Source: Escherichia phage 236Ecol005PP. Taken from it: a stretch of 64,000 nt of DNA. How positions within the stretch are numbered: position 1 is the first letter of the stretch; each line of letters begins with the position of its first letter. This document shows positions 7,130 to 64,000 of the stretch, one piece after another. The stretch is from sequence record PP434423.1; one strand, 5' to 3'. Position numbers and translations under genes: made by a program. The notes below the pieces were generated by a model. It ran no database searches and was not told the DNA's origin. It saw only the letters and a list, made by a program, of their open reading frames with translations.

Positions 7130-7510
7130 TCAGCCTTCATCAACAATAGTATGCGTATTGGCATTTACGATTTGCCACCAATCAAAGCGATTAGAACCAT
7201 AATCTGGTTTGTTTTCATTTTCTTTGATAATGTCACGAAGTTCATCTTCAGTAGCGGCTTTCGCGATTAAATCAGCATATCCACCACGAGGATAATAATT
7301 ATCACCTGCAAAAAGTAAAAAGTTTGGTTTAATGTCATTGAACTCTTCAAGAGTAATAACTTTTCCTGACGGTTGAACAATCTCTACATATTTATACCCC
7401 AATTTTTGAGCAGCATCTACTGCTTCAAGCAAAGTATCATGAGCCCATCCAATTTGACAACCTGGCTTTTCAGATGGATTAGCCTGATAATCCGCATACA
7501 CTTTGTACAT
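7130..7510 (-). CDS. hypothetical protein, 126 aa
   Basis: ATG at 7510 with AAGGTGA RBS (track start 7519 is GTG). Confidence 0.6.
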   Translation of the reverse strand: MYKVYADYQANPSEKPGCQIGWAHDTLLEAVDAAQKLGYKYVEIVQPSGKVITLEEFNDIKPNFLLFAGDNYYPRGGYADLIAKAATEDELRDIIKENENKPDYGSNRFDWWQIVNANTHTIVDEG

Positions 7511-7697: not shown

Positions 7698-7725
7698 TTT
7701 ATTCTCCTCTGTAGTTGATAGGGTA

Positions 7726-7755
7726 ATAGTATCACTACCCTATCTAAAAGTAAAC
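7726..7755 (-). promoter_or_regulatory. T4-type early promoter (-35 GTTTAC, -10 TACTAT) inside inverted repeat GATAGGG/CCCTATC
   Basis: GTTTAC-N18-TACTAT; 7-bp inverted repeat arms bracket the -10. Confidence 0.5.
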
Positions 7756-8106: not shown

Positions 8107-8136
8107 ATAGTATCACTACCCTATCTAAAAGTAAAC
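8107..8136 (-). promoter_or_regulatory. T4-type early promoter (near-copy of the 7726-7755 element)
   Basis: atagtatcactaccctatctaaaagtaaac repeated; GTTTAC-N18-TACTAT on minus. Confidence 0.5.
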
Positions 8137-20128: not shown

Positions 20129-21125
20129 TTCAAGTGTTATCTATCGTGCGATAGTTACTTCAAAATTTAGAACAGAAAAAATGTTGAATTTTTATAATTC
20201 AATTGGAAGTGGTCCGGATAAAAACACTATCTTTATCACATTTGGAAGATCAGAACCGTGGTCATCAAATGAAAATGAGGTGGGCTTTGCTCCACCTTAT
20301 CCTACCGATTCCGTATTAGGTGTAACTGACATGTGGACTCATATGATGGGAACCGTAAAGGTTCTTCCATCTATGCTTGATGCAGTTATTCCTCGTAGAG
20401 ATTGGGGAGATACTAGATATCCGGATCCATACACATTTAGAATTAACGATATTGTAGTGTGTAACTCAGCTCCTTACAATGCTACTGAATCAGGCGCAGG
20501 CTGGTTAGTATATCGTTGTTTAGATGTTCCTGATACCGGAATGTGTTCAATAGCATCTTTAACTGATAAAGATGAATGCCTTAAGTTAGGTGGAAAATGG
20601 ACTCCTTCTGTTAGGTCAATGACTCCTCCTGAAGGTCGAGGAGACGCGGAAGGAACAATCGAACCCGGCGACGGATATGTTTGGGAATATCTTTTTGAGA
20701 TTCCGCCTGATGTATCTATAAATAGATGCACGAATGAATATATCGTGGTTCCTTGGCCTGAGGAATTAAAAGAAGACCCGGCTAGATGGGGGTATGAAGA
20801 TAATCTCACTTGGCAACAAGATGATTTTGGATTAATTTACCGTGTTAAGGCAAATACTATCCGTTTTAAAGCATATTTAGATTCAGTTTATTTTCCTGAG
20901 GCTGCATTGCCGGGAAATAAAGGATTTAGACAAATATCAATAATCACGAATCCTCTTGAAGCTAAAGCTCATCCAAATGACCCAAACGTTAAAGCTGAAA
21001 AGGATTATTATGATCCGGAAGATTTAATGAGGCATTCGGGCGAAATGATTTATATGGAAAATAGGCCACCTATTATCATGGCAATGGATCAAACAGAAGA
21101 AATCAATATTCTGTTTACATTTTAA
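20121..21125 (+). CDS. 8: gp8 baseplate wedge protein
   Basis: 334 aa as T4 gp8; synteny. Confidence 0.9.
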   Translation: MNDSSVIYRAIVTSKFRTEKMLNFYNSIGSGPDKNTIFITFGRSEPWSSNENEVGFAPPYPTDSVLGVTDMWTHMMGTVKVLPSMLDAVIPRRDWGDTRYPDPYTFRINDIVVCNSAPYNATESGAGWLVYRCLDVPDTGMCSIASLTDKDECLKLGGKWTPSVRSMTPPEGRGDAEGTIEPGDGYVWEYLFEIPPDVSINRCTNEYIVVPWPEELKEDPARWGYEDNLTWQQDDFGLIYRVKANTIRFKAYLDSVYFPEAALPGNKGFRQISIITNPLEAKAHPNDPNVKAEKDYYDPEDLMRHSGEMIYMENRPPIIMAMDQTEEINILFTF

Positions 21126-58803: not shown

Positions 58804-58990
58804 AATAATCTAATGGTAAGAGAGTACGATATATTTCAAACTTTGGCCCTTTTTCATAGGCATCAAATGTTTCTGAAAATTTATTATAAGCATATGCATC
58901 TACAAATTCGAGAATGATTTGTGATACAGAAGTAGAAACATCTCCACCTTCTTTTTGAGCAATGACAATTGTTTCTAAGTAAGCTTTCAT
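58802..58990 (-). CDS. hypothetical protein, 62 aa, translationally coupled to ligase
   Basis: ATG overlaps gene 30 stop (ATGA). Confidence 0.55.
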   Translation of the reverse strand: MKAYLETIVIAQKEGGDVSTSVSQIILEFVDAYAYNKFSETFDAYEKGPKFEIYRTLLPLDY

Positions 58991-60450
58991 AGACCAGTTA
59001 CCTCATGAAAATCGCCAAATACATCCTCGAATGTATTAGCTTTAGTTTTATCTTCACGTAAACGAATCGCAATCGGAAGAAATAATTTAACGTAATCAGT
59101 GCGGCCATCAGATTTTAACCAACCATTGCATTCGCACTCTAGAATTTTTCCAATATAATAATTTTGGTTTTCCATAATGCGAGTACGGTCAAGTTCATGC
59201 GATTTTACACCGGCTTTATCTTTTAAGCCTGAACCAGCATTTACTTTAATTTTTCCACACTCTGACTCAAGAATAAATCCACCTGCTTTAGTAGGGTCTT
59301 TACGGTGAGGATAAATTCCTACAATTTTTAAATCAACATCAATTACTTCTTTAAATTTATAGAGATTTTTTGAACGAGCATTTTCCCATAATCCATCGAT
59401 ATTTTTGAGAATAATACCTTCAAGACCTTGGTCAATATACTTTTTATAAATTACCTTAGCTTCATCTAGGTTATTTACTACCTGGTTTTCAATTAAAATT
59501 ACTTTATCATAGCCTGATGTCATTTGTTCTAGTTTAGAAAAACGTACATCATATTTCAAACGAAATGCAGGAAGACCGTATATTTCTACCAACGGGACAT
59601 AATCCCAGACCTGAAACTTCATGCATTGAGCTTCTTTTTCAGAAATGGTTCCCTTTAAAGATTTATTGGCGATGCCATTAGATGCAGTACGTGATTCAGC
59701 TACTTCTGTGAAGTCTTTAACTTTGCTGTTTTCAGGATGAGCATCAAAAAGAAAATCTAGGCCTTCTGGCTCCTTTTTAACTTGCTCATGGTATACCAAT
59801 TCGCCATCAATTAACACACCTTCTGGATGAATCTGGCGGGCTTCAGCAGTCATTTTGATTAACTCTTCCTTAAGAAGATCTAATCCTAGATATTCATTAC
59901 CGGCTCGTGATAAAAGACGAACATCATCTAATTCATCACCTCGGACTTCAGCAAAACACCGAGCTCCATCTGCTTTTAACTGTGCAAAGGCTGGAAACTT
60001 AATATTCTTATTAATGCCTTTTTCATCATAAGAACTTGCCAGCATTTGAGGTTGTTCAGGAATTAAACCTGACCAAACTTTGTTTGCAATAGATACTGAA
60101 GCACCGCATTCAAGGTCTCGCATCATAACTCGACGCAAAACTTCAACATCATTCTTTTTACCATCAGTGATATATCCAGTCAATTCCTCAATTGCAGCAT
60201 TTCCAGTCAATTTCCGAGTAGCTAATGTGAATTCAATGAAGTCAAGCATATCGGTAAGAGTCAACATTCCAAAACTCTGGGTAGTAATACCAGGTTTAGG
60301 CCATTTCTTGATATAATACTGCAACCCACGAGAATAAGTCAGACGATATACTCGTTTAAGCAATTCATTATCTTTATTCTTTTCAAGAATTGCTTGCTTC
60401 TGCTTAGTTGAACCAATAGATGCTATTTCGTTCAGAATTTTAAGAATCAT
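58987..60450 (-). CDS. 30: ATP-dependent DNA ligase
   Basis: MILKILNEIASIGSTKQKQAILEKNKDNELLKRVYRL... and KADG motif; 487 aa, T4 DNA ligase. Confidence 0.97.
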   Translation of the reverse strand: MILKILNEIASIGSTKQKQAILEKNKDNELLKRVYRLTYSRGLQYYIKKWPKPGITTQSFGMLTLTDMLDFIEFTLATRKLTGNAAIEELTGYITDGKKNDVEVLRRVMMRDLECGASVSIANKVWSGLIPEQPQMLASSYDEKGINKNIKFPAFAQLKADGARCFAEVRGDELDDVRLLSRAGNEYLGLDLLKEELIKMTAEARQIHPEGVLIDGELVYHEQVKKEPEGLDFLFDAHPENSKVKDFTEVAESRTASNGIANKSLKGTISEKEAQCMKFQVWDYVPLVEIYGLPAFRLKYDVRFSKLEQMTSGYDKVILIENQVVNNLDEAKVIYKKYIDQGLEGIILKNIDGLWENARSKNLYKFKEVIDVDLKIVGIYPHRKDPTKAGGFILESECGKIKVNAGSGLKDKAGVKSHELDRTRIMENQNYYIGKILECECNGWLKSDGRTDYVKLFLPIAIRLREDKTKANTFEDVFGDFHEVTGL

Positions 60451-62755: not shown

Positions 62756-63121
62756 TTAAATATCAAATTCGTTAAGAACTACATCAAAGATCGCTTCAAG
62801 ATGCTCAGGTTTAGCTCTGTTACTCAGAATATGACGAATCCAAGTTTTAACCAGAAGCTTACGATTGACGCCATTCCAGCAAGGATGAGTCCCTAAATCA
62901 CGTTGACGGAAATCATCATCTAATGCGATTTTAAAAGAAGAACCTTCTTTCGTGATTGAAACCGTGATGCCATTTTCAAATCGCATATAAACGTAATTAG
63001 GAGTCATATACTGTTCAATTTCGCATACTGATCCATTTTGATGTTTCCAAAGGCAGATAGTATCAATAGAACCTGCAATACCGTTAGAAACATATTTACG
63101 TTCAAAGTTGATGTAGTTCAT
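62756..63121 (-). CDS. hypothetical protein, 121 aa
   Basis: ATG start; early promoter upstream. Confidence 0.6.
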   Translation of the reverse strand: MNYINFERKYVSNGIAGSIDTICLWKHQNGSVCEIEQYMTPNYVYMRFENGITVSITKEGSSFKIALDDDFRQRDLGTHPCWNGVNRKLLVKTWIRHILSNRAKPEHLEAIFDVVLNEFDI

Positions 63122-63158
63122 TTTTATTCTCCGAGATGTTTAATTGCGGTACAGGTAT

Positions 63159-63187
63159 ATAATATCATATCCTGTACCAAAGTAAAC
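63159..63187 (-). promoter_or_regulatory. T4-type early promoter (-35 GTTTAC, -10 TATTAT) bracketed by inverted repeat GGTACAGG/CCTGTACC
   Basis: GTTTAC-N17-TATTAT; 8-bp inverted repeat arms at 63149-63156 and 63171-63178. Confidence 0.5.
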
Positions 63188-63189
63188 AA

Positions 63190-63522
63190 TTATTTTACTA
63201 CTTTCCATTGCTGCATGTCAAGTTTACCAACTTTTTTCATCTTCTCAATTAAGCGTTCGACACGTTGGCGAGCTGTAACATAATACCATTCACCCAATTC
63301 ATTTTGTTCAATTTTTCCAACGATTACTGTATTCAATTCATAAATCCAACCAGTAAAGAAATTATGAACTTGAATTGTAAAGGTGAAATCTGTTCCCATA
63401 CCTTCTGTTGTTTCTACTTCAATAATATCACCTTCAACTGCCATTAAGAACCACATAGTTTCATCATATTTACCATTGAAGCATTTAATTTTAACTGTAG
63501 CGTTCAGATTAATCGTTTTCAT
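63190..63522 (-). CDS. hypothetical protein, 110 aa
   Basis: ATG with AAGGAG RBS. Confidence 0.65.
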   Translation of the reverse strand: MKTINLNATVKIKCFNGKYDETMWFLMAVEGDIIEVETTEGMGTDFTFTIQVHNFFTGWIYELNTVIVGKIEQNELGEWYYVTARQRVERLIEKMKKVGKLDMQQWKVVK

Positions 63523-63550
63523 TTTATTCTCCTTTGTTTGTGTAAGATAA

Positions 63551-63579
63551 TACTATTACAAAGGAACCATACTGTAAAC
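63551..63579 (-). promoter_or_regulatory. T4-type early promoter (-35 GTTTAC, -10 TAGTAT) bracketed by TGTAA/TTACA
   Basis: GTTTAC-N18-TAGTAT on minus strand. Confidence 0.4.
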
Positions 63580-63597
63580 AACTTTGTGCAATCTTTG

Positions 63598-63627
63598 GAA
63601 AATAAAAAAGGACTCCCGAAGGAGTCC
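63598..63627 (-). terminator. rho-independent terminator
   Basis: minus GGACUCCUUCGGGAGUCC followed by UUUUUUAUUUU. Confidence 0.7.
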
Positions 63628-63632
63628 TCAAC

Positions 63633-63809
63633 TTATGCTTTCTGCTTACCAAAACGAGAAGCATCATCTCGAAGAACCGCACGTGCTCGGCGCATGATCT
63701 TCTCAACAGTTTGATTGATACGAGAGTTCGACCCACGCTTGTAACCAGCGCGTTTAGAATCACCAACTTTCTTTTCAACTGCTTTCTTTGCTTTAGCTTG
63801 TTTTGCCAT
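63633..63809 (-). CDS. small highly basic protein, 58 aa
   Basis: ATG 63809 (M15 of track ORF 63633-63851); MAKQAKAKKAVEKK..., Lys/Arg-rich; terminator directly downstream. Confidence 0.5.
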   Translation of the reverse strand: MAKQAKAKKAVEKKVGDSKRAGYKRGSNSRINQTVEKIMRRARAVLRDDASRFGKQKA

Positions 63810-64000
63810 TATAAATTCTCTTTTAAATGAAAATGCAGGACTTATTGGCATTGCCTGCGCAAGCCCTCAAGGGGAACATAGGTTTTGGATATTTAACGAC
63901 AGGATAACCATAAACCCGTCATCATACCTTATAGCTCTTATCTGTTGCACACCGTTAGCTTAAAGGTTCCGGGTCCGATTTCTCGAGGATAAGATATATA

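Follow-up and report, generated by a model that had tools for sequence, protein, structure and literature searches.

Genomic context and layout of the promoter

The DNA analysed here is a stretch of 64,000 nucleotides from Escherichia phage 236Ecol005PP (PP434423.1), in the following denoted as the window, and is from a T4-type phage (Tequatrovirus). A 1-kb query around the inverted repeat described below matched 722 phage records, mostly Tequatrovirus, with 95-99% identity. The last 5 kb of the window are occupied by minus-strand genes that match T4 gene 30 and genes 30.1 to 30.9. The 30.1-30.9 cluster is comprised of small genes of unknown function, and the repeat is intergenic within this cluster, located in the 68 nt between genes 30.8 and 30.7. 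These 68 nt are identical to T4 (AF158101). The features of the locus, in window coordinates, are:

58987-60450, minus strand: gene 30 (DNA ligase), by its match to T4
62756..63121, minus strand: gene 30.7, 121 aa, served by the promoter under study (ORF list and T4 match)
63122..63132, minus strand: Shine-Dalgarno GGAG of gene 30.7 with A-rich tail (GGAGAAUAAAA), a canonical RegB/S1 cleavage motif, unpaired in the hairpin fold
63137..63188, minus strand: full predicted read-through hairpin in T4-type phages, core plus outer helix
63148..63155, minus strand: hairpin 3' arm (CCUGUACC in the sense RNA), about -3 to +5 relative to the estimated start
63159..63167, minus strand: extended -10 element TGaTATTAT, in the repeat loop (promoter scan)
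63171..63178, minus strand: hairpin 5' arm (GGUACAGG in the sense RNA), in the promoter spacer from the fourth nt after GTTTAC
63182..63187, minus strand: -35 element GTTTAC, with A/T-rich TAGTAAAATAATT ahead of it (promoter scan; identical in T4 AF158101)
63192..63190, minus strand: stop codon of gene 30.8, 2 nt ahead of the -35 element
63190..63522, minus strand: gene 30.8, 110 aa (ORF list and T4 match)
63530..63579, minus strand: early promoter of gene 30.8 (P30.8), GTTTAC at 63579..63574 and TAGTAT at 63555..63550
63608..63629, minus strand: canonical intrinsic terminator after gene 30.9, GAGGACUCCUUCGGGAGUCCUU plus U-tract, flagged by the terminator scan and upstream of P30.8

The promoter of gene 30.7 (P30.7) is a consensus T4 early promoter, GTTTAC-N17-TATTAT, whose spacer is 16 nt, TG included, when counted from TTTACT. 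On the minus strand the TG is found at 63167..63166 and the TATTAT at 63164..63159. The complete layout of this strand reads TAA-TT-GTTTAC-TTT-GGTACAGG-ATA-TGA-TATTAT-ATA-CCTGTACC-GCAATTAAACATCTC-GGAG-AATAAAA-ATG. Judged by the spacing to the -10 element, transcription from P30.7 would start near position 63152. The 30.7 transcript is observed 2 min after infection, and RegB cuts at its GGAG (PMC9409239); motifs of the GGAGAAUAAAA type are canonical RegB/S1 sites (PMC1702504). Transcription start or end sites of T4 mapped across the whole genome were not found in the literature searched. For the region upstream of gene 30, Truncaite and co-workers reportedly described two promoters of the early class, two sites for RegB and a terminator that is conserved.

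On the plus strand, the perfect 8-bp inverted repeat consists of GGTACAGG (63148-63155) and CCTGTACC (63171-63178), separated by a loop of 15 nt (63156-63170). An earlier reading of this DNA, made from the letters alone (the sequence-only reading), had proposed a perfect 8-bp repeat at 63149-63187 that encloses the -10 of an early promoter, upstream of ORF 62756-63121. The repeat is present, the promoter is of the T4 early type (GTTTAC-N17-TGaTATTAT), and the minus-strand ORF lies directly downstream of the repeat. The proposed span covers promoter plus repeat up to the -35 hexamer, but starts one base inside the first arm. Likewise, TATTAT is in the loop as proposed (on the minus strand), but the loop has 15 nt rather than 14. 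Outside of the core, an outer helix is formed by UGUUUACUU (63188..63180) and AAUUAAACA (63145..63137) with 8 of 9 pairs. As a conserved part of the element the outer helix was rejected, as it is gone outside the close T4 relatives (lost in L007-L016 of the comparison set introduced below).

Recurrence at other early promoters

Inverted repeats of this size are frequent in the A/T-rich window. Perfect 8-bp repeats with loops of 3-25 nt amount to 98 seeds, compared to 41.8 +/- 7.5 in block shuffles; repeats with at least 5 G/C per arm are rare, the numbers being 15 and 1.2 +/- 1.3, respectively. When the hexamers of P30.7 are kept and the spacer and downstream bases are shuffled, a bracketing repeat of at least 8 bp is obtained with p = 0.017. 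The abundance of seeds and the limited single-site p-value are what speaks for chance, or for a neutral by-product of the constraints on promoter sequence. The recurrence of the arrangement speaks against it: of the 11 credible early promoters of the window, 6 are bracketed by a perfect repeat of 8 bp or more (Fisher combined p 3e-5), with -35 elements at positions 945, 7755, 9962, 56340, 63187 and 63579. Taken together with the arms that are conserved between diverging flanks, the compensatory changes and the re-invention of the hairpin in other genera (see below), this enrichment makes a chance origin hardly credible.

The sequence-only reading had regarded the repeat at P30.7 as an independent instance of a recurring bracketed -10, and the count of 6 of 11, which includes its other case at 7717-7755, agrees with this. 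Within the first 50 kb of T4 (positions 1-50 kb), 2 of about 13 promoters are clearly bracketed, namely those upstream of dmd and motB. Based on both counts, the bracketed -10 architecture is real and is found at about one in three of the early promoters examined. The arm sequences are different at each of the six bracketed promoters of the window.

The individual promoters differ in detail. The minus-strand promoters at 945, 9962 and 56340 have perfect bracketing repeats of 8-10 bp, with the arms TTCCTCCAAG/CTTGGAGGAA, AGTTTCAT/ATGAAACT and CCTCATGTT/AACATGAGG, respectively, and their 3' arms contain the downstream Shine-Dalgarno (SD) or AUG. The minus-strand promoters at 7755 and 8136 share an identical segment from -35 to -10 (GTTTACttttagatagggtagtgaTACTAT). 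The complementary 3' arm is kept only at 7755 (TACCCTATC), with TATCTCATC found at 8136; the pair looks like a duplicated cassette of which one copy has lost the pairing. In T4 (L059, AF158101), the dmd promoter (repeat at about 20560-20612, minus strand) has a tight repeat around the -10, GACAAGACTA/TAGTCTTGTC with a loop of 8. The motB promoter (about 7160-7215, minus strand) has GGGACCA/TGGTCCC around the -10, also tight and with a loop of 8. In type, both repeats correspond to the 30.7 element.

A scan of IMG/VR for GGTACAGG-N8-22-CCTGTACC returned at least 120 matches, nearly all of them on contigs that are unrelated. In a collection of this size such matches are due to chance, and they are uninformative on mobility. 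A search against Rfam with permissive E-values yielded hairpin look-alikes only, the sole overlap being mir-126 with 22.8 bits (gathering score 47.2, E 0.22).

Conservation and compensatory changes

The regions upstream of gp30.7 homologues were compared among phages from IMG/VR and GenBank. In relatives whose gp30.7 is 89-100% identical (L003-L016) the arms are invariant, while the loop outside of the hexamers and the 5' leader diverge. In genera with a gp30.7 of only 45-56% identity, a hairpin around the -10 persists with other arm sequences and a stem of 9-19 bp:

Marfavirus P545: arms TTGGTGTAGGAGTA / TACTCTTACACCAA
L041: arms GGTGAGGGTCTG / TAGACTCTCACC
Kanagawavirus Q7622: arms GCTGATTGAGTGT / ACACTCAATCAGC
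MHG19: 19-bp stem
L051: arms TTGGGTGGT / ACCACCCAA
Karamvirus, Gelderlandvirus and L056: arms CTCCGTTGTAT / ATACAACGGAG or CTCCGAGGTTTGT / ATAAACCTCGGAG, the 3' arm being the Shine-Dalgarno

Alignment A3 consists of eight distinct sequences in one register. All of its 64 helix cells pair (64/64); three pairs are changed on both sides and one pair alternates between G-C and G·U. With the partner slid by 1-3 columns as a control, 30-48% of the cells pair. RNAalifold, unprompted, returns the same helix. MAFFT set the 3' arms of Kanagawavirus and MHG19 four columns out of register; the pair count is therefore limited to the eight sequences of A3, and the others are treated as independent re-inventions. 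The inverted repeat is conserved, with the arms kept in the close relatives and the pairing kept in A3.

Internal single mismatches (L006, the P545 group, L041 twice, and L053) are all G·T on the sense strand, with no A·C among them, and go back to at least four independent events. This restriction to one strand is an indication that the arms pair as sense RNA and neither as DNA nor as antisense RNA. Among the orthologues, the arms are spaced 6 to 31 nt apart. Complementarity, more than sequence, is maintained in the repeat.

These observations bear on the idea that the repeat is a protein binding site, which the sequence-only reading had raised as something to be checked. A palindrome that binds a dimeric phage or host protein could occlude the -10 and switch the early promoter off. 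The repeat indeed brackets the -10 in the manner of classical operators, and the mechanism of T4 early-promoter shut-off is still described as unknown (PMC2988021). The invariance of the arms among close T4 relatives, taken alone, would also fit a sequence-specific reader. However, the arms differ among the bracketed promoters of the window as well as between orthologous promoters, the spacing varies over the range given above, pairs covary, and G·T is tolerated on the sense strand only, which together are the signature of RNA pairing. An operator also offers no rationale for the loss of the repeat exactly where a terminator is present upstream, as described below. Nothing in the present data speaks in favour of an operator. 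We consider such a role very unlikely, and the more specific proposal, that the palindrome is the operator of an unidentified early-promoter shut-off factor, is given at best a slight chance.

Different genera have different genes upstream of the promoter, and nucleotide homology to several phage groups ends at the -35 (query position 138). As for junctions of insertions, deletions or replacements, the comparison gave the variable upstream neighbour and the half repeat of KpV477, with no junction located among the close relatives. Specifically, the Klebsiella phage KpV477 (L022/L052) keeps the T4-type 3' half GACCTGTACC, together with an unrelated spacer and a terminator upstream. In L051, a relative of KpV477 without a terminator, a new 5' arm TTGGGTGGT pairs with ACCACCCAA, which overlaps the old arm. 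From this pair of sequences, the register of the hairpin has shifted during evolution.

Folding in read-through RNA and access to the ribosome site

The 5' arm is located upstream of the start site, hence the hairpin folds only in RNA that has begun further upstream. Such read-through RNA must exist, because the 30.8 stop codon precedes the -35 by 2 nt, without an intervening terminator. The read-through RNA has a predicted fold of -20.1 kcal/mol (z -3.9), and none of 200 shuffles is as stable. The leader of the transcript that starts at P30.7 itself is unstructured (-0.8 kcal/mol).

A number of T4 genes are known for hairpins of a related design. The genes e, soc, 49 and I-TevI have hairpins that sequester the ribosome binding site, together with an internal late promoter (PMC3014915). 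As in the 30.7 element, the promoter is in or next to the 5' strand of the hairpin, such that local transcripts are without this strand and RNA started upstream folds. They differ from the 30.7 element, an early promoter with a free ribosome site, in that their promoters are late and the 3' strand extends over the SD or AUG.

By analogy, the read-through RNA could hide the ribosome site of 30.7, with only transcripts from its own promoter being translated. For late promoters the principle has been established (PMC3014915), and it fits P30.8, 945, 9962, Karamvirus, Gelderlandvirus and L056, in all of which the SD or AUG is part of the 3' arm. In these six cases, the predicted probability of the initiation region being unpaired drops from 0.5-0.97 to 0.19-0.37 in the read-through RNA. 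For gene 30.7, however, the initiation region (-14..+3) is as open in the read-through RNA (0.81) as in its own transcript (0.67), and the minimum-energy fold leaves SD and AUG open. The distance from the end of the 3' arm to GGAG is 15 nt for the core and 4 nt for the outer helix. Discrimination between transcripts at the level of translation is thus decidedly unlikely as the role of the element at 30.7. The 3' arm also stops ahead of the Shine-Dalgarno in L007, L013, L017 and L051, with an initiation region that is open as at 30.7. On the basis of the predicted folds, the hairpins would fall into two functional types: boundary hairpins, as at 30.7, and hairpins that hide the ribosome site.

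The neighbouring promoter P30.8 exemplifies the second type. Its bracketing repeat on the plus strand is TCCTTTGT (63530-63537) / ACAAAGGA (63558-63565), and this pairing is used in the minimum-energy fold. The 3' arm of the repeat (UCCUUUGU/ACAAAGGA) covers the Shine-Dalgarno of 30.8. The predicted accessibility of the 30.8 initiation region is 0.97 in its own transcript versus 0.37 in the read-through RNA. The repeat at P30.8 may be described as an early-promoter version of the scheme of e, soc and 49, and several P30.7 orthologues likewise follow the scheme of e, soc, 49 and I-TevI. For this promoter, the sequence-only reading had pointed to a second, weaker instance, TGTAA (63541-63545) / TTACA (63556-63560). 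These sequences are present, but the stronger TCCTTTGT/ACAAAGGA at the same promoter was missed. As the main structure of P30.8, TGTAA/TTACA was rejected, as the fold prefers the stronger competing repeat. We note that the ribosome sites of 30.7 (63122-63132) and 30.8 (about 63523-63534), both on the minus strand, are of the GGAGAAUAAAA type, that is, RegB/S1 motifs.

Similarity to promoter-stem-loop cassettes

PeSLs (promoter-early stem-loops) were defined in the phages RB49 and phi1 as a stem-loop combined with an early promoter of the sigma-70 type that has an A/T-rich region upstream (Arbiol et al. 2010, PMC2839356). In that paper, the stem-loop is most commonly located between -35 and -10, or described as 'SLS overlapping the -10 box', and G-T pairs occur. 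The definition was later extended to PST/T4, with the promoter consensus TTTACW-N17-TAYWAT (Comeau et al. 2014, PMC4122927). By these published descriptions, the 30.7 cassette is similar in composition, with an early promoter, a stem-loop, an SD and an ATG between small genes of the hyperplastic region. P30.7 conforms to the promoter consensus as GTTTACT, a 16-nt spacer and TATTAT. Its layout likewise corresponds, with the upstream stop in TAA-TT-GTTTAC, the A/T-rich TAGTAAAATAATT, and GGAG-N7-ATG downstream. The stem-loop is represented by the perfect 8-bp repeat, the fold of -20.1 kcal/mol and the covariation. There are two differences. The legend of the 2014 paper puts the stem-loops of PST/T4 'just upstream' of the promoter, whereas the arms at 30.7 bracket the -10 (PMC4122927). 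Moreover, the terminator activity in the published account stems from one reporter assay on another element, and the 30.7 hairpin is without U-tract. Judged by the published text, the structural properties assign the 30.7 element to the PeSLs, as a member of the subclass that overlaps the -10.

PeSLs have also been found to recombine with one another, with crossovers mapped within the stem-loop in the account of the RB49/phi1 elements (PMC2839356). It is therefore conceivable that the repeat acts at the level of DNA and is kept as a substrate for recombination, either as a cruciform or as a patch of homology, in the modular shuffling of small genes, which has been proposed for PeSLs. This would be in line with KpV477 (L022/L052), which keeps only the T4-type half CCTGTACC next to a different spacer and upstream gene, with the variation of the upstream gene between genera, and with the homology to several phage groups that stops at the -35. 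Against this, the sense-strand-only G·T mismatches argue for RNA, and the break in homology is explained equally by a faster divergence of the 30.8 coding sequence. Stems of 8 bp with a loop of 15 nt extrude poorly as cruciforms, and poor extrusion is to be expected here. It seems more apt to view the shuffling as something that follows from conserved cassettes than as the selected function. Overall, a role as a recombination substrate is quite unlikely.

Relation to terminators

In one of the annotated genomes, OL960581, the equivalent feature is labelled 'rho-independent terminator' (WebGeSTer). If this were correct, the hairpin would end transcription from gene 30.8. The label is in agreement with the position of the hairpin, which occupies the site of the true terminator in some relatives, and, according to the published assay, one other PeSL stem-loop from RB49/phi1 reduced the expression of lacZ to a similar extent as rrnB T1 (PMC2839356). 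No U-tract follows the stem in the window or in any orthologue; the tail in the window reads GCAAUUAAAC, and the tails of all orthologues are A-rich. Canonical termination is therefore unlikely. The terminator scan left the P30.7 hairpin unflagged, but did flag the real terminator at 63629..63608; the core stem has only 8 bp and the loop 15 nt. Lacking a U-tract and with a negative scan, the label in OL960581 is unsupported by canonical criteria, and we regard an intrinsic terminator at this position as improbable.

Hairpin and terminator are complementary in their occurrence. The upstream stop codon abuts the -35 without a terminator in 16 of the 19 loci, and a hairpin is present in 15 of these 16; L044 has neither hairpin nor terminator. 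In the remaining three loci (fHe-Yen9-01 and KpV477, L022 and L052) a canonical terminator is located 44-55 nt upstream, and the hairpin is absent in all three. The exclusion is also observed within one genus, with the hairpin in L051 and the terminator in KpV477. Counting the few independent lineages (about 12), the pattern has a hypergeometric p of about 0.045. We read the hairpin as a probable stand-in for the intergenic hairpin of a terminator, marking the boundary of the upstream message.

Intercistronic stabiliser hairpins, such as the REP-type 3' barriers in E. coli operons, offer a further comparison. As with terminators and stabilisers, the 30.7 element is a stable, G+C-containing hairpin right after a stop codon, and it is exclusive with a true terminator in relatives. 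The differences are the missing U-tract, the long loop and the overlap with a functional promoter, and the stabiliser activity is only putative.

Proposed function

Our preferred reading, to which we assign a probability of about 0.6, is a cassette of the PeSL type whose stem-loop acts as RNA in read-through transcripts, as a boundary element of the upstream cistron. The cassette would combine a strong sigma-70 T4 early promoter with a stem-loop whose arms are placed in the spacer and across the start site. Transcripts from P30.8 and beyond would carry both arms and form the hairpin, and leaders started at P30.7 would be unstructured. The hairpin may then serve as the boundary of the upstream cistron where other relatives have an ordinary terminator. 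As such, it would probably hold up 3'-exonucleases after a cut by RegB or RNase E at or near the GGAG of 30.7, and/or act as a weak, U-tract-independent attenuator of read-through. The 30.8 fragment left by RegB cleavage would end just 3' of the hairpin, which fits a 3'-exonuclease barrier. As a by-product, the local fold may keep the initiation region of 30.7 free.

A stronger version of the attenuator, a U-tract-independent and possibly factor-assisted device that stops or unloads the upstream RNA polymerase at the next promoter, is a speculation to which we attach a low probability. If true, the dose of each small early gene would be set by its own promoter alone, and the device would represent a general rule of transcriptional insulation in the T4 superfamily, able to replace canonical terminators.

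For the biology of T4 itself, a boundary element adds little that is new: P30.7, the RegB site and, according to the published descriptions, the class of promoter-plus-stem-loop elements have already been reported (PMC2839356, PMC4122927). Added here are the compensatory changes and the sense-strand-only G·U, which indicate that the stem-loop is selected as RNA. Also added is the observation that the hairpin is possible only in read-through RNA and that, at 30.7, it probably replaces a terminator with the ribosome site left unmasked. The result is relevant for annotation, since pipelines either label this element as a 'terminator' or overlook its promoter. The same goes for the reuse of T4 early promoters as parts, because the base pairing couples the spacer with the start region.

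Further observations in the gene 30.8-30.9 region

A second promoter-like element is found in the 3' end of gene 30.8. The element TTGACA-N18-TAAAAT (63192-63221, minus strand) agrees with the sigma-70 consensus in 11 of 12 positions. It is labelled 'promoter' in OL960581 and NC_054925; its conservation does not extend to more distant relatives. RNA started from this element would begin at about the -35 of P30.7, with the whole hairpin at their 5' end.

The Rfam search also returned a sub-threshold match to Atu_C8, an sRNA of Rhizobiales, at 63594-63677 on the minus strand (31.4 bits, gathering score 50, E 7e-4). The match covers the 3' end of gene 30.9 and the terminator, and is probably driven by the terminator hairpin. 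Upstream of gene 30.9, positions 63820-64000 form a comparatively G+C-rich stretch that continues past the end of the window. The equivalent region is annotated as a hypothetical ORF of 58 aa in OL960581 and is without annotation in T4, where a gap of 244 nt separates 30.9 and rIII.
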